Source: Escherichia phage phiD2-2. Taken from it: a stretch of DNA of 49,337 nt. The stretch lies in the sequence record OR861627.1; one strand, given 5' to 3'. Both the position numbers and the translations under genes were made by a program. Below, piece after piece: positions 33,266 through 43,833 of the stretch. The notes under the pieces were generated by a model. That model was not told where the DNA came from. It saw nothing but the letters and a program-made list of their open reading frames with translations, and ran no database searches. The stretch's first letter is position 1. Each line of letters opens with the position of its first letter.

Positions 33266-36200
33266 ATGATTCAAAAAGTGATAAGTGGATCTAAAGGCGG
33301 CTCGCCTAAGCCTCATAATCCAGTTGAGATGGAAGACAATCTAATCTCAATCAACAAAATCAAGATCCTGTTAGCTGTATCTGATGGTGAAATTGACGAA
33401 ACATTCAGCCTGAAGCAGTTGATGTTTAACTCAGTCCCGGTGCAAAACGAGGATGGATCGTTCAACTTCGAAGGGGTAAAGGCTGAGTTCAGGCCGGGAA
33501 CTCAGACGCAGGAATACATCAAGGGCATGGAGGATAGTTCCAGCGAGGTAACTGTAAATCGTGAGGTTACTACCGATAACCCATACACGATCTCAGTGAC
33601 CAATAAAACACTATCGGCAATACGCATCAAAATGTTCATGCCTCGCGGCGTACGAATTGAAAGTAACGGTGATAAAAATGGCGTAAGAGTTGAGTATGAG
33701 GTGCAACAAGCTGTTGATGGCGGTTCGTTTGAGACTGTTCTTACTGACGTAATTGAAGGCAAAACAATGTCAGGTTACGACAGAAGTCGACGTGTAAACC
33801 TGCCTAGCTTTAACAACCAGGTAATATTCAGAGTTGTTCGAAAGACTCCAGACTCTAACGACTCTAACGTTGTTGATGCGATCCAGGTAAAGAGCTATGC
33901 CGAGGTGATTGATGCCAAATTCCGTTACCCTCTGACAGGTCTTCTTTTCGTCGAGTTCGACTCGAAGATGTTCCCAAACCAGTTACCTACGATCTCAATT
34001 CGTAAGCGCTGGAAGATTGTAAGCGTTCCGTCGAACTACGACCCAGAATCGCGAACATACAACGGCAATTGGGATGGCACTTTCAAAAAAGCATGGACGA
34101 ACAATCCGGCGTGGGTTCTTTATGACCTGATGATTAATCAGCGTTACGGCTTGGATCAGAAAGAGCTTGGTATCGCTGTCGATAAATGGGCGCTCTACGA
34201 GGCTGCGCAATATTGCGATCAGATGGTTCCTGATGGGAAGGGCGGGACGGAACCTCGATACCTTTGCGACGTGATAATCCAGTCTCAGACTGACGCTTAC
34301 AAGGTTATTCGAGATATTTGCTCAATCTTTCGAGGTATGAGCTTTTGGAATGGCGAAAGCATTTCGGTAATCATCGATAGGCCGCGTGAGCCTGCGTACA
34401 TCTTCACTAACGACAACGTGGTTAATGGTGACTTCTCCTACACGTTTGCAAGCGAAAAGAGCATGTACACGACGTGTAATGTGATGTTTGACGACGAGCA
34501 AAACATGTATCAGCAGGACGTTGAGCCAGTATTCGATCGTGAGGCTACTCTACGGTTCGGGAACAACGTAACGAGCATTACAGCGATCGGCTGCACACGT
34601 CGAAGCGAGGCCAACCGACGCGGGAGATGGATTCTGAAAACTAACCTCCGCAGCACTACGGTAAACTTCGCTACCGGACTTGAGGGTATGATTCCGACAA
34701 TCGGAGATGTTGTGGCAATAGCTGATAACTTCTGGTCAAGTAACTTGACGATGAACCTATCAGGGCGCTTGCTCGAAGTATCCGGTAGTCAGATTTTCTT
34801 GCCGCTCCGGGTGGATGCACGCGCGGGTGACTTTATTATCGTAAATAAGCCAGATGGCAAGCCCGTGAAGCGCACAATATCAAGTGTTAGTGCGGATGGT
34901 AAGACTATAGAGGTTAACATTGGCTTTGGCTTTCCTGTGAAGCCTAACACGGTATTCGCTATCGACCGCACCGACATTGCGTTACAGCAGTACGTCGTGA
35001 CAAAAATCGATAAGGGCGATGATGATGAGGAATTTACCTACAAAATAACGGCGGTGGAGTACGATCCTAACAAGTACGATGAGATTGATTACGGAGTTAA
35101 TATCGACGACCGACCGACGAGCATCGTTGAACCAGATCAGATCCCTAGACCGGAAAACGTGCAAGTGTCCTCAGAGTCACGAATCGTCCAGGGGATGAGC
35201 GTAGAAACGATGATTGTTAGCTGGGATAAAGTGCCGTACGCAGTTTTCTATGACGTCCAGTGGCGAAAGGATAACGGCAACTGGCAAAATGTACCGCAGA
35301 CAGCAAACAAAGAGGTATACGTTGAAGGTATTTACGCTGGCAACTATCAGGTTCGCGTTCGCTCCGTAGCTGGTTCCGGTACGACTTCAGGATGGTCAAA
35401 TGTCGTAGCTGCGACGCTGACGGGCAAACAAGGTGAGCCGGGTGGACCGATTAACCTTACAGCTACGGATGATGTTGTTTTTGGTATCCGTACAAAATGG
35501 GGGTTCTCTGATGGTTCTGGAGATACGGCCTATACAGAGTTGCAACAGTCACCAGATGGAACAGTGGATAACGCAAGTTTGCTTTCTTTGATTCCGTACC
35601 CGCAGCATGAGTATTATCACTCACCGATGCCTGGAGGGAATATTGTTTGGTATCGTGTAAGGACGGTTGATAGGATCGGTAACGTGTCTCAGTGGACTGA
35701 TTTTGTCAGAGGTATGGCATCAACAAACGTTGACGATATCATTGGGGAGATTTCTGTCGATATCGAAAACTCGCCGGGTTACGAGTGGCTTGTTGATAAC
35801 GCAACCGACAACGCGGCGCAGAACGCAGCTAACGCAGAGGCAGCAATAGAAAACGCGCTCGCCAATGACAAAGACGCGATCTACATGAAGAAGGAGAACG
35901 GAAAACGAAAAGCTGAGTACACGAAATCACTGAAACTTATTGCTGATGAGACGCAGGCGCGAGTGACGGCGATCGAGCAATTGAAGGCAAGTTTTGGCGA
36001 TCAGATTAGCGCTAGCAACAGCGAATTGCGTGAAGTTATCGCAACTGAGACTGGAGCGCTATCGCGTGAAATTGACCAACTCAGGGCAGAGATTGGTGAT
36101 GATATCCAGGCAAGTTTGACCGATATCAGAGAGGCTATAGCAAACGAGACTGAGGCGAGAACGCAAGCTGACTTGTCGTTAAGCGCGAGGCTTGGGAATA

Positions 36201-36685
36201 ATGAGGCAGCACTTTCTCAAAAACTTGATTCGTGGAGCAATGCAGATTCGACTGGTGCAATGTACGGCGTCAAGCTCGGTCTGAAGTATAACGGCCAAGA
36301 ATACAGTGCAGGCATGGCTATGTCTCTGATTGGTTCCGGAGCTGCGGTTAAGGCGCAGATTTTGTTTGAGGCATCACGATTTGCCATCATGAATGGAATG
36401 AATGGTCAGACTCAGTACCCATTCGTTGTTGAGAATGGCCAGGTTATTTTAAGTAGCGCGATTATCAAGAACGGATTCATCACGAATGCGATGATTGGTA
36501 ATGTTATTCAATCGAATAACTATGTCGTTAACAAGGCTGGCTGGATACTTGACAAGGGTGGAACATTAGAAAACTACGGAAGTGACGCTGAGGGTGCAAT
36601 GAAGCAAACTAATACCACAATATCTGTTAGGGATGCGAGTGGTCGCCTGAGGGTTCAGATTGGCAGGTTGACTGGTTCATGGTAA
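33266..36685 (+). CDS. central tail fibre / tip attachment protein (lambda gpJ-like)
   Basis: 1139 aa after the M-L-K-I series; coiled-coil segment near residue 850-950. Confidence 0.8.
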   Translation: MIQKVISGSKGGSPKPHNPVEMEDNLISINKIKILLAVSDGEIDETFSLKQLMFNSVPVQNEDGSFNFEGVKAEFRPGTQTQEYIKGMEDSSSEVTVNREVTTDNPYTISVTNKTLSAIRIKMFMPRGVRIESNGDKNGVRVEYEVQQAVDGGSFETVLTDVIEGKTMSGYDRSRRVNLPSFNNQVIFRVVRKTPDSNDSNVVDAIQVKSYAEVIDAKFRYPLTGLLFVEFDSKMFPNQLPTISIRKRWKIVSVPSNYDPESRTYNGNWDGTFKKAWTNNPAWVLYDLMINQRYGLDQKELGIAVDKWALYEAAQYCDQMVPDGKGGTEPRYLCDVIIQSQTDAYKVIRDICSIFRGMSFWNGESISVIIDRPREPAYIFTNDNVVNGDFSYTFASEKSMYTTCNVMFDDEQNMYQQDVEPVFDREATLRFGNNVTSITAIGCTRRSEANRRGRWILKTNLRSTTVNFATGLEGMIPTIGDVVAIADNFWSSNLTMNLSGRLLEVSGSQIFLPLRVDARAGDFIIVNKPDGKPVKRTISSVSADGKTIEVNIGFGFPVKPNTVFAIDRTDIALQQYVVTKIDKGDDDEEFTYKITAVEYDPNKYDEIDYGVNIDDRPTSIVEPDQIPRPENVQVSSESRIVQGMSVETMIVSWDKVPYAVFYDVQWRKDNGNWQNVPQTANKEVYVEGIYAGNYQVRVRSVAGSGTTSGWSNVVAATLTGKQGEPGGPINLTATDDVVFGIRTKWGFSDGSGDTAYTELQQSPDGTVDNASLLSLIPYPQHEYYHSPMPGGNIVWYRVRTVDRIGNVSQWTDFVRGMASTNVDDIIGEISVDIENSPGYEWLVDNATDNAAQNAANAEAAIENALANDKDAIYMKKENGKRKAEYTKSLKLIADETQARVTAIEQLKASFGDQISASNSELREVIATETGALSREIDQLRAEIGDDIQASLTDIREAIANETEARTQADLSLSARLGNNEAALSQKLDSWSNADSTGAMYGVKLGLKYNGQEYSAGMAMSLIGSGAAVKAQILFEASRFAIMNGMNGQTQYPFVVENGQVILSSAIIKNGFITNAMIGNVIQSNNYVVNKAGWILDKGGTLENYGSDAEGAMKQTNTTISVRDASGRLRVQIGRLTGSW

Positions 36686-37725: not shown

Positions 37726-37750
37726 GCCCCTTTCGGGGCTTTTCTTTTAC
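37724..37750. terminator. bidirectional terminator between fibre-region gene and lipoprotein gene
   Basis: Stem AAGCCCC/GGGGCTT with TTTC loop then T-run. Confidence 0.65.
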
Positions 37751-37980
37751 ATCGAGCAATCGTGAGACTTGAAGTTATTCTCTGATACGTAATGGAATGA
37801 GAATGGATACCCAGCACGTAACAGCATCTCATCACCGCGCATCTTTGATCCAAAAACGGAAACCGAGTACTCTGCGTCACCTGATTCATAAATCGCAGTA
37901 CAAGTGCGCTCAGGCATCGATGAGCAACCAGTCAGGATGAATGCCGCAGCAATAATGGTGATTAATTTTTTCATTTGCAT
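37747..37980 (-). CDS. outer-membrane lipoprotein, Cor/Llp-like superinfection-exclusion candidate
   Basis: Convergent to the fibre genes; signal peptide with lipobox (MKKLITIIAAAFILTGCSS); short Cys-containing mature part; GAGGA RBS. Track start 38040 trimmed. Confidence 0.5.
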   Translation of the reverse strand: MQMKKLITIIAAAFILTGCSSMPERTCTAIYESGDAEYSVSVFGSKMRGDEMLLRAGYPFSFHYVSENNFKSHDCSM

Positions 37981-38040
37981 GTCCTCGTCGTTAGTGTGAT
38001 TGCATTGTATGTCGCATTTACTTTTATTGCAATAGCGCAA

Positions 38041-40750: not shown

Positions 40751-40782
40751 AAAAATCCCCGCAATGCGGGGATTTTATCATT
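40751..40782. terminator. bidirectional terminator between SSB and side tail fibre
   Basis: A5, stem AATCCCCGC/GCGGGGATT, T-run. Confidence 0.7.
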
Positions 40783-42283
40783 TGGACTTCAACATTTTTA
40801 TCTCTTCTTGTAACTCTTCAACTTTCTTTATTGTATCCTGTAAAGCTCTCATAGTGTCAAGCAATAAAGGAGTTGTATCAAGCTCAAGCCTTTCAACTTT
40901 TGGCCCGTTTAGCTCGTGGCTCTCATACACCCTTCTCTTAACATATAGATTGTCGATCTCTTCTATCTCCTGAGCTATAACACCTCTCCTTACCCTTTCT
41001 TGCTCATCATCGTTAAATATAAAGTTCCTAAATCTCATTGATTTTATGTTGTTGTATGCAATGCTTGATTCATCATCCTTTATGCCGTGCTTTATATTTC
41101 TGTCAGATGCCGGAACCTGTTGGAAACTTCCAGCCCCTTGCGGTCCAGCGTAAGATATTTGCCCTGAAGCCATAAACCTGAAATGCATTTGCAGACCAAT
41201 ATTGCCTGCTCCATCCCTATCTTGAGTGCCTACTGATATTTGTGCCCTGGGCCATTCAGGATTACCCGTAGTCATCATGCCAAATGCTACGCCGCCAACG
41301 TATCCCTGACCTCTGGTGTCACACGATCCAGCAATAAGTGATTGATAGTTTTCAGCACCACTATCAGCGGTGTAAGCATTACCCTGGAAGCATGAAGCAG
41401 ACCACATCTGGTTGTAACCCATAGATGTTTTCTGGCATAAAAACTGATTAGCTCTGAATCTATTGTTAGTCTCGAAGTAGTTTGCCCCCTCATAAAATAA
41501 TAAAGCCCCAGCATAACCATTATCGCTACGTTCTTTTCTGACGTAAATACCTGGCGTAGATATTCCATCAGGTGACATAATCATCAATGATGACAATATG
41601 GACTGACTACCCCAGCTAGAACCGTCCCATGAATTCCTTCCTGCACCTATAGCGCCAGTGGTGTTAATAGCAAGAAAGTTAACAGCATCATTTTCACCTA
41701 ACCCAATATTTTTTCTTGACTCTTTTTTATCCTCAAGACCAGCTAAATTGCCATCCTTAGTTAAAAGATTTTCAGCATTGATGCTGTTAGCTGCGTCTTT
41801 TGCTTCTTGAGCACTTACCGCAGCCGCATCTTTTGAGCTTACCGCATCGTCACGCGCTAATTCAGCCTGATTTTGCGCAGCTTGAGAATCAGATTTCGCC
41901 TGATTCACATCAGCAACTATTTGCTCAAGTTTATTCATATCAAGCTGATTTATCAGGTCTATAGCTGCCGCAATCTCAGTCTCTTTGCTTTGATAGTATC
42001 GAAGAGTCTCGGCGACGTTTTGAGCTAATCCGTTAACGGTTAGAGAGTCATTAAGTAGGATCACATACTTACCGTCATCGGCAGTCTGACCATCAGTAGA
42101 GATAGCCTTTAATTCTGTATCACTAACGATATCGCTAATCACAGCTAGCTTAATTGGTTGCTCAAGGAACACGATAGTTGCACCTACGCGAATAAGAGCA
42201 AGCTGGTCTTTCCATTTTGTATCGGTTCCGTGAACCGTTCCGTCTGCATCCATTGATGCAGTACCGCGTCGATATAAAGCCAT
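40778..42283 (-). CDS. side tail fibre with C-terminal intramolecular chaperone (peptidase S74-like) domain
   Basis: 501 aa; coiled-coil N-terminal region, Gly-rich beta region, C-terminal PASDRNIKHGIKDD followed by helical segment. Confidence 0.7.
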   Translation of the reverse strand: MALYRRGTASMDADGTVHGTDTKWKDQLALIRVGATIVFLEQPIKLAVISDIVSDTELKAISTDGQTADDGKYVILLNDSLTVNGLAQNVAETLRYYQSKETEIAAAIDLINQLDMNKLEQIVADVNQAKSDSQAAQNQAELARDDAVSSKDAAAVSAQEAKDAANSINAENLLTKDGNLAGLEDKKESRKNIGLGENDAVNFLAINTTGAIGAGRNSWDGSSWGSQSILSSLMIMSPDGISTPGIYVRKERSDNGYAGALLFYEGANYFETNNRFRANQFLCQKTSMGYNQMWSASCFQGNAYTADSGAENYQSLIAGSCDTRGQGYVGGVAFGMMTTGNPEWPRAQISVGTQDRDGAGNIGLQMHFRFMASGQISYAGPQGAGSFQQVPASDRNIKHGIKDDESSIAYNNIKSMRFRNFIFNDDEQERVRRGVIAQEIEEIDNLYVKRRVYESHELNGPKVERLELDTTPLLLDTMRALQDTIKKVEELQEEIKMLKSK

Positions 42284-42322
42284 AATATAAACTCCTTAAG
42301 TAAATAGCACGAATTGCTAAAC
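42284..42322 (-). promoter_or_regulatory. palindrome in operator-like position in the tail-fibre leader
   Basis: TTTAGCAATTCGTGCTATTT lies between the predicted promoter and the AAGGAG RBS. Confidence 0.45.
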
Positions 42323-42326
42323 ACAG

Positions 42327-42355
42327 ATTTTATCATCGCGCCACGAGTCTTGCAA
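42327..42355 (-). promoter_or_regulatory. candidate sigma70 promoter for the side tail fibre gene
   Basis: Leftward reading TTGCAA, 17 bp, TAAAAT; predicted start falls on the palindrome at 42304-42322. Confidence 0.45.
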
Positions 42356-42372
42356 CGGGCAATAAAAAACCG
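42340..42372 (-). terminator. rho-independent terminator after primase
   Basis: Leftward reading: AACCGCC-TTCG-GGCGGTT then T6. Confidence 0.7.
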
Positions 42373-42383
42373 CCCGAAGGCGG

Positions 42384-43319
42384 TTATAGTAGATCACTTG
42401 CTGAGAATAACTTAGCTTGCATTCCTGAGCGGTATCCTCCCTGATTCGGGATGATTATTTTTAATTGTCTGTCGTCTGCCATGTATAAAGTTTCTTTATC
42501 AGATGGTTCGCACGCCACCCTTACCTCCCGATCTCCCTTGTATCTGTACGCAACCATTTCTAGATTTTCAGGAGTGAAGCAGGCCCATACCTCTTGCTTT
42601 GTGTGAAATGCAATATGCTGAGCATCAATCCAATTAAGGCATAAGTAGATCGCTTTTTCAGTTTTACCAGTCACGGCAACCGAGCAACTTGTGTATTTCT
42701 TTGCATAAAATGACTCCCTACCCTCCTCATCAATAATCAAAATATTGCAAAACTCTTCATCAAGACCGTCCTCGTGTACAAGTTGACATGGTATGGTGTG
42801 AAATACACTCTCGCCGCCATCCTCTCGACGTTTTACGCCAACGTCGAATGATTCAGTAGGTAGCGACTCAAACATGCTTAGAGGTGTGTTTATGCGCTTC
42901 TCTGTGCGCTCCATAACTTTCATCACTGCCTCGTGTTCTGCCATCATAACATTGACGCCAGCTACCGGAGTTCTTCGCGCTTTTTTGTTGGCCTTGACAA
43001 TGTATTCCTGCGGAACCTTGCCGAGAAATCTTCCCAGGATATTTATACATTCGCTGTACGGCATACCAGTTAATTTAATCAACCAACCGACTCCAGAGTC
43101 GTTACCGCATGAGTTGCAGATCGCACCGCCGTCGCCCGGAGTGTTAAGGTTATCAGTCCAGCGAAAGCGGTCCTTACCCCCGCAGTTAGGGCAAGGTTGG
43201 TGTTTCTTATTAAAAACATCATTCGGCAATCCGCAGATTGATTGGAAAGCCTCGCGCCATAACCCCTTCATGTACGGCAAAACGTCCTCTTTCTGAAACA
43301 TCATAAATTCTTCGTTCAC
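42384..43319 (-). CDS. DNA primase (zinc-ribbon + TOPRIM-like)
   Basis: N-terminal CPNCGGKDRFRW...CNSCG zinc ribbon, acidic C-terminal half; followed by a leftward terminator. Confidence 0.6.
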   Translation of the reverse strand: MNEEFMMFQKEDVLPYMKGLWREAFQSICGLPNDVFNKKHQPCPNCGGKDRFRWTDNLNTPGDGGAICNSCGNDSGVGWLIKLTGMPYSECINILGRFLGKVPQEYIVKANKKARRTPVAGVNVMMAEHEAVMKVMERTEKRINTPLSMFESLPTESFDVGVKRREDGGESVFHTIPCQLVHEDGLDEEFCNILIIDEEGRESFYAKKYTSCSVAVTGKTEKAIYLCLNWIDAQHIAFHTKQEVWACFTPENLEMVAYRYKGDREVRVACEPSDKETLYMADDRQLKIIIPNQGGYRSGMQAKLFSASDLL

Positions 43320-43328
43320 TTCCAGATC

Positions 43329-43370
43329 TCCAAAATAAAAAACGCGTAGAAGGATGTTAACCCGCTACGC
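43329..43370 (-). terminator. rho-independent terminator after the HTH gene
   Basis: Leftward reading: stem ACGCGTAG/CTACGCGT then T7. Confidence 0.6.
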
Positions 43371-43376
43371 GTCGTT

Positions 43377-43397
43377 TGTTTTAACTAAAAATGCTAT
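43377..43397 (-). repeat. boundary palindrome copy containing the HTH gene stop
   Basis: Leftward reading ATAGCATTTTTAGTTAAAA with TAA stop inside; terminator follows. Confidence 0.5.
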
Positions 43398-43833
43398 TGG
43401 TCGTCCCGATATCTTCCTTCTTCACGACGCGCATAAATTTCTTGTTCTTGCATCGCTTCTCAAGGCACTTGCCGTTACCGTCAAACTTCAGGTCGAATCG
43501 CAACCATGCGGCACGAAATCCTTTACACCCCTGTCGTCGGTAAGCACGATGCGCAGCTTCAGCACCTTGCCACGAAATCATGTTGCGTTCTTTCCAGCCT
43601 TGCACCGTCTGATTGCTAACCTTTAGAGCTTTTGCGCAGGCCGCAGGGCCACCATAATATTCGATAAGCGCATCAAGTCGCGCTCGCAATCCGGCGCGTG
43701 TTTCTTCTTTATGAATATAGAAGCCGCAGCGCTGTCGAGGCTTTTTATCTTTACCGCGTCGTGTTCCGTTGTTACCATTGATGTGACGTTTATCGATTTC
43801 ACCAGTTGACTCTGCGATACGTTGAATACTCAT
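43381..43833 (-). CDS. putative DNA-binding regulator (Cro/YdaS-like HTH plus Cys-rich C-terminus)
   Basis: AACAKALKVSNQTVQGWKERNMIS looks like a Cro/CI-type HTH; C-terminal cysteines suggest zinc binding; AGGAG RBS abuts a palindrome copy. Confidence 0.4.
   Translation of the reverse strand: MSIQRIAESTGEIDKRHINGNNGTRRGKDKKPRQRCGFYIHKEETRAGLRARLDALIEYYGGPAACAKALKVSNQTVQGWKERNMISWQGAEAAHRAYRRQGCKGFRAAWLRFDLKFDGNGKCLEKRCKNKKFMRVVKKEDIGTTNSIFS

Follow-up and report, generated by a model that had tools for sequence, protein, structure and literature searches.

A candidate lateral tail fibre with a C-terminal Peptidase S74 chaperone domain in a T1-like Escherichia phage

What is the product of a 501-codon gene that stands apart from the tail genes of its phage, and would the whole of it persist in the virion? 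The gene lies on the minus strand of the window, the 49,337-nt stretch of Escherichia phage phiD2-2 (OR861627.1) analysed here. ORF search and translation recover it as one intact ORF, running from an ATG at 42283-42281 to a TGA at 40780-40778 (table 1). An earlier note, written from the letters alone, had taken the product for a side tail fibre ending in a chaperone-like domain of the self-cleaving type, and had placed the likely host-range determinant upstream of that domain.

Location and identity of the fibre gene

The neighbours of the locus are an ssb-like gene and the primase gene; the tail genes, whose module occupies 27-37 kb, are encoded on the other strand. An exonuclease, an Erf-like annealing protein and the ssb-like protein are encoded on one strand, the fibre, the primase and a regulator on the other, and a helicase gene follows. 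This order is colinear with that of phages JMPW2 and pSf-2, in which the gene at the corresponding position is annotated as tail fibre. With its own RBS, a promoter-like site and terminator-like hairpins, the fibre gene appears to form a self-contained transcription unit. Upstream, a terminator-like hairpin over the primase stop codon would separate the primase and fibre transcripts, and the promoter-like site falls between this hairpin and the RBS. The assignment of this promoter is tentative, as the promoter-like sites of the region match the shuffled expectation in total number. Downstream, a second hairpin occupies the 28-nt gap between the fibre stop codon and the convergent ssb-like gene; it probably acts as a bidirectional terminator, and is plain in the sequence although the pattern scan missed it.

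Table 1. Features of the fibre gene, its product and its flanks, in window coordinates.
Feature	Coordinates	Strand	Basis
Lateral (side) tail fibre gene, complete, 501 aa + stop codon	40778..42283	-	ORF, PHROG, identity to FCWL1/Tunavirus genes
N-terminal virion-anchor domain (predicted), about aa 1-112 (up to ~130)	41948..42283	-	DpK2 match, tblastn
Ala/Gln/Asp-rich helical shaft (predicted), about aa 113-175	41759..41947	-	composition, predicted helix, allele alignment
Deletion junction, one remaining copy of 11-nt direct repeat AGCGCGTGACG, codons L142-D145	41848..41858	-	pSf-2 comparison
Distal (tip) region, aa 176-392, 217 residues	41108..41758	-	variable part + Gly-rich core
Intramolecular chaperone / Peptidase S74 domain, aa 393-501, 109 residues	40781..41107	-	PF13884, 8hqz_d, model, Foldseek
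Ser393 codon, predicted nucleophile, first residue of released chaperone	41105..41107	-	PF13884, T5 pb1 alignment
Lys398 codon, predicted general base	41090..41092	-	conservation, T5 pb1 Lys1269 alignment
RBS AAGGAG, 8 nt upstream of fibre ATG	42292..42297	-	read from sequence
Promoter-like TTGCAA-17-TAAAAT with TG extension, upstream of fibre gene	42327..42355	-	consensus match only
Terminator-like hairpin over primase stop codon	42368..42385	-	pattern scan + sequence
Hairpin CCCCGC-ATT-GCGGGG, perfect 6-bp G+C stem, A/T runs both sides	40757..40771	.	direct reading

At the DNA level the gene is 99.9% identical to that of Escherichia phage FCWL1 (Tunavirus, Drexlerviridae), and the protein is 99.8% identical to FCWL1 gp50, which is labelled "hypothetical protein". 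The tail fibre genes of pSf-2, Sfin-1, Shfl1, JMPW2, SH2 and Eco_BIFF, which are Shigella and E. coli T1-like phages, follow at 92-97% DNA identity. Judged by its sequence, the source phage is a member of Tunavirus, that is, a T1-like siphophage of the Drexlerviridae. A PHROG search returned tail-fibre families, the best being phrog_1980 (E = 1.5e-97), matched over nearly the full length. The designation of side tail fibre is thus upheld by the PHROG families, by an anchor homologous to those of Drexlerviridae (see below) and by the position, which is that of the annotated fibres of JMPW2 and pSf-2.

Two database records of this locus are peculiar. When the FCWL1 record (PP558327.1) is set against 40778-43833 of the window, the genes for the fibre, the primase and the 150-aa regulator each stand at their usual place but as the reverse complement; the spacers 42284-42383 and 43305-43380 are oriented as in the window, and all CDS of the record in this stretch lie on one strand. 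As the arrangement reported here agrees with JMPW2 and pSf-2, the gene flips of FCWL1 look like a deposition artefact. In Shigella phage vB_SsoS_008 (MK335533.1, 36382-38070) the annotation divides the fibre locus between two ORFs, and no S74 domain is precomputed for the matching protein of 285 aa; this phage may have a split or truncated gene.

The gene stands amid recombination and replication genes, at a distance from the tail module and on the other strand, and FCWL1 labels its product "hypothetical protein"; the product could accordingly be something other than a virion side fibre, with a non-structural role. Yet the same locus is annotated as tail fibre in Tunavirus genomes, and the gene appears to own a terminator, a promoter-like site and an RBS. 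Moreover, its N-terminal domain is homologous to that of Klebsiella phage RAD2 DpK2, a tailspike whose length agrees with that of the tail appendages measured on virions in published RAD2 work. By analogy, Gp55 of phage TLS, a candidate counterpart, would point the same way: a mass of 78 kDa, a structural place in the virion and kinship with the T5 L-shaped fibre have been reported for it. For close relatives (Sfin-1) no usable virion proteomics came out of a literature search, and we found no published experiment on this fibre protein or a close relative. A non-structural role seems to us hardly credible, and a lateral fibre is the reading that we pursue.

A C-terminal domain of the Peptidase S74 family

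The motif PASDRNIKHGIKDD, which the earlier note had placed in the C-terminal domain of the 501-aa minus-strand fibre, is indeed there, at residues 391-404. The profile search that it had proposed as a check gave a match of residues 393-443 to Pfam PF13884 (Peptidase_S74, "chaperone of endosialidase") at 34.1 bits (E = 3.3e-8). The curated gathering cut-off of this family is 22 bits, and the match spans profile positions 1-52 of 58, with Ser393 on position 1. The same assignment is already precomputed for an identical protein in a public collection, and all 45 aligned homologues match PF13884. An NCBIfam search of the fibre protein gave no match. Among PDB sequences the best match of the chaperone, at about aa 371-501, is chain 8hqz_d, an L-shaped tail fibre protein of 1076 aa: the C-terminal 129 residues align to it at E = 7e-11, with S-x4-K at the aligned position and the core DDEQERVR-GVIA-E in common, although that fibre is much longer and its shaft and tip differ. 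In sequence, the likeness to the S74 chaperone family is well beyond chance.

A HMMER search with residues 176-501 against 1.84 billion cluster representatives gave 341 relatives at E ≤ 1e-3, and residue conservation was counted in 161 diverse relatives aligned with MAFFT. The column of Ser393 holds Ser in 149 and Cys in 8 of the 161. Lys398 is matched by Lys in 160, and is invariant in two further alignments, including the 45-sequence one. Asp is found at position 394 in 134 sequences, and a core formed by G434-x-I-A-Q438 and Y447 is nearly invariant. Relatives with less than 50% identity keep these residues as well (Ser393 26/28, Asp394 27/28, Lys398 28/28). The domain runs to the last residue, 501, and for 120 of the 161 relatives no more than 10 aa lie between the end of the alignment and the C-terminus. 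As a separate observation, the eight relatives with Cys in place of the nucleophilic Ser retain the Lys, and may represent a thiol variant of the self-cleaving chaperone.

The counterpart for which experiments are available is pb1, the lateral fibre of siphophage T5. There the Thr1263-Ser1264 bond is cleaved, an S1264A mutant stays uncleaved, the serine departs with the chaperone, and Lys1269 has been proposed to activate the serine (PMC4690869). Using hhalign, A392, S393 and K398 of the fibre fall on T1263, S1264 and K1269 of pb1; the alignment to pb1 970-1396 covers 54 columns at the chaperone start at a probability of 5.8% with a single-sequence template, and is used for residue correspondence only. 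The two proteins share S-D-x-x-x-K (T|SDARLK in T5, A|SDRNIK here) and a C-terminal helix. In T5 and K1F an upstream Arg of the neighbouring chain and an Asp act as folding sensor and oxyanion hole (R1250 and D1239 in T5; PMC4690869). The fibre sequence offers no alignable counterpart of this pair, and the tip model is too poor for geometry. Distant relatives have Arg at aligned position 366 in 14/28 cases, and R369 is present here; with half of these relatives carrying an Arg only three alignment columns away, R369 is a candidate for the sensor Arg.

Structure prediction was informative for the chaperone. A full-length AlphaFold model based on a 9-sequence alignment was unusable (mean pLDDT 35), but a monomer model of residues 176-501 based on the 45-sequence alignment reached pLDDT 77-90 in the chaperone (395-501), against about 30-60 in the tip. 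As modelled, the chaperone displays the features of the S74 fold, namely an alpha/beta part, a beta-hairpin (aa 448-468) and a long C-terminal helix (aa 470-500). A Foldseek search of the PDB returned eleven chains at E < 0.01 (probability 0.99-1.0). They belong to three entries only, 7DC3, 4UW8 and 3GW6, each with an intramolecular chaperone domain, and the next match stands at E = 0.5. The best structural match, 7DC3 (E = 3.9e-5, target-normalised TM 0.61-0.64), is the chaperone homologue of MyRF (the ICA), which is 20% identical and comes from a eukaryotic transcription factor, an unrelated biological setting. T5 pb1 (4UW8) is likewise a top fold match. The chaperone of K1F endoNF (3GW6, probability 1.0) is the founding member of Peptidase S74 and belongs to the same Pfam family; the same Ser/Lys autoproteolysis has been proposed for it (PMC4690869), but it sits on the enzymatic tailspike of a podophage and the sequence identity is about 11-12%. 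The proposal of a self-cleaving type of chaperone therefore gains from this analysis: the Ser393/Lys398 pair is present and conserved, and the predicted fold matches three solved members.

In an alternative scenario the S74-like domain would stay attached, serving only trimerisation and folding as a lasting part of the C-terminus, and the mature fibre would keep all 501 residues. The missing match to the Arg/Asp sensor residues of T5 and K1F would fit such an arrangement, as would size: the domain has 109 residues in a protein of 501, whereas that of pb1 has 133 in a protein of 1396. Nevertheless, Ser393, Asp394 and Lys398 are intact and strongly conserved even below 50% identity, and the homologous domain of T5 is cleaved off (PMC4690869). 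A catalytic pair so well conserved would be difficult to account for if no catalysis took place, which counts against a retained chaperone. We regard retention as unlikely, and favour a chaperone that would be released.

Anchor, shaft and exchangeable tip

The N-terminal part of the fibre connects it to other appendages of T1-like phages. Residues 1-219 match 7LZJ, the DpK2 depolymerase of RAD2, and 7VYV at E about 1e-43, the identity to DpK2 being near-continuous over the first ~120 residues and slight further on. A tblastn search with the fibre protein against 50,697 phage records matched 1,174 of them, most of which have only the first 120-135 residues in common with it and differ in the remainder. 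These anchor-sharing phages infect Escherichia, Klebsiella, Salmonella and Citrobacter, and have genomes of 44-52 kb of Drexlerviridae type. The anchor is 50-68% identical to those of lateral fibres and tailspikes of many such phages, one of which, from the BASEL phage KarlJaspers, is annotated as "lateral tail fiber protein". In Drexlerviridae lateral fibres only the far N-terminus, where attachment to the virion occurs, is conserved (PMC8594841), and the sequence of the present fibre fits this pattern of a kept N-terminal anchor and a variable remainder. The anchor shared with DpK2 is consistent with the same attachment site on the T1-like tail.

This kinship raises the question of whether the protein is an enzymatic tailspike that depolymerises or deacetylates glycans, instead of a fibre that only binds. 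After all, its anchor is common to a true capsule depolymerase, and it was on endosialidase tailspikes that S74 chaperones were originally described (PMC4690869). The similarity to DpK2 nonetheless stops at about aa 120-220, ahead of the beta-helix into which DpK2 continues, and DpK2 in turn has no S74 chaperone match. Pfam, NCBIfam and PDB sequence searches disclosed no enzymatic domain in the fibre, and merely about 217 residues separate the shaft from the predicted cleavage site. An enzymatic tailspike thus appears very improbable. We rejected the depolymerase reading, no enzymatic domain having been detected, along with the non-structural one, given a fibre-annotated locus and a tailspike anchor elsewhere. 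A binding fibre continues to be the preferred reading.

Beyond the anchor, residues 116-167 are predicted as a long helix in the low-confidence AlphaFold model. Among near-identical alleles the shaft alone differs in length, giving proteins of 501, 518 (JMPW2) and 594 aa (pSf-2). Relative to the common 594-aa allele, 279 bp of shaft (93 aa) are missing here, in frame. In pSf-2 the extra 279 bp are flanked by copies of AGCGCGTGACG, and the deletion runs exactly between the copies. The intermediate 518-aa allele of JMPW2 has a 30-bp tandem duplication (DMNKLEQIVA twice) within this segment. Together, the repeat-bounded deletion and the tandem duplication indicate that shaft length is polymorphic through repeat-mediated events.

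The tip, residues 176-392, was not matched in Pfam and PDB sequence searches, and BLASTP against T5 pb1 gave no significant match, tip included; the N-terminal anchor of pb1 is also unrelated, and its "bullet" tip has no detectable sequence similarity to that of the fibre. The Foldseek alignment to 4UW8 extends over 417 columns but with an rmsd of 24, the tip part of the model being of low confidence. Two portions can be told apart. At about 318-392 a conserved Gly-rich core adjoins the predicted cleavage site, and all 28 relatives with less than 50% identity share G335 and G360, with F370, G327, Y328 and I376 also mostly kept. At about 200-317 the same relatives look more variable, which makes this portion a better candidate for specificity than the last ~75 residues before the cut.

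Tip and chaperone recur together on other N-termini. At 57-63% identity they follow a different anchor in 44-45-kb phages including Dhillonvirus jat, and more distant versions stand behind a T7-type tail-fibre N-terminus (PF03906). In one further distant version the two are found behind YadA-head repeats (PF05658). From these sequences, the tip-plus-chaperone cassette has passed between phage morphotypes, and may have been exchanged with adhesin-like proteins too. The occurrence of tip plus chaperone on different N-termini implies a module swapped horizontally as a unit, and fits a receptor-binding role.

How far this makes the tip the determinant of host range, as the earlier note had it, is a different matter. 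An exchangeable module does lie upstream of the predicted cleavage site, and to this extent the proposal holds. In the literature, on the other hand, reversible binding of T1-like lateral fibres to a primary glycan receptor is a supposition that, as the BASEL authors remark, no one has directly demonstrated, and the terminal receptor, for example FhuA, is attributed to the central tail tip (PMC8594841). A large ORF in the tail-gene block of the window, 33266-36685, is taken as the central fibre J gene. A small ORF on the minus strand, 37747-38040, carries a lipoprotein-type signal, MKKLITIIAAAFILTGCSS, and occupies the position of the Cor superinfection-exclusion protein in JMPW2, which suggests a phage that targets FhuA.

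Proposed maturation and significance of the fibre

With the domain architecture, the S74 membership in sequence and predicted fold, the conserved Ser/Lys pair and the exchange of the tip in view, we infer a virion location, a receptor, a cleavage event and its exact site. We put forward, with a probability of roughly 85%, that the protein is a lateral fibre composed of an anchor, a shaft, a glycan-binding tip and an S74 chaperone that is cut off at Ala392/Ser393. Three chains would assemble into one fibre, attached to the tail by residues of about 1-112 and extended by a short helical (coiled-coil) shaft at about 113-175. The chaperone (393-501) would trimerise first, its C-terminal helix (aa 470-500) being expected to form a coiled coil, and the intertwined tip would then fold with the chaperone as its template. 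With the tip in its correct fold, Lys398 would activate Ser393 and the Ala392|Ser393 bond would be cut in each chain, predicting a 109-aa, 13.0-kDa chaperone that leaves and a 392-aa, 41.9-kDa fibre kept by the virion. In the mature particle the tip (176-392) would contact a surface glycan and provide reversible primary adsorption; the binding of T5 pb1 to a surface glycan is reversible too.

More speculatively, the tip could bind its receptor with a fold other than that of the T5 "bullet", carried in a cassette with the chaperone that Tunavirus, Dhillonvirus and T7-type phages share. The glycan recognised might be one common to rough E. coli K-12 and B strains and to Shigella, and repeat-mediated deletions and duplications might adjust the shaft, in proteins of 501, 518 or 594 aa, to how deep the surface layer of the host is. 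Taken as a whole, this extended scenario is a doubtful one, offered tentatively.

The chaperone-bearing architecture as such is already known. It has been described, by prediction, for a fibre of Drexlerviridae and one of Dhillonvirus; the BASEL fibres JakobBernoulli Bas07 Gp36 and RuthEpting Bas85 Gp29, for example, are predicted to combine an N-terminal coiled coil, a receptor-binding tip and a C-terminal chaperone as here; Bas07 belongs to the same phage family as the phage of this fibre, though the BASEL tip alleles differ from the present one. Structures have been solved for S74, which Pfam curates as a family, and all that is missing is a name for the FCWL1 product in place of "hypothetical protein". 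The finding is thus an ordinary one that opens no new biological question, and its practical value is in annotation: the protein can with confidence be named a lateral tail fibre ending in an intramolecular chaperone, with maturation predicted at Ala392|Ser393. Such an annotation is relevant to fibre expression and to virion proteomics, where a fibre of about 42 kDa, and not 55 kDa, is predicted. Finally, since tip and chaperone travel together in nature, host-range swaps should move the tip with its chaperone.
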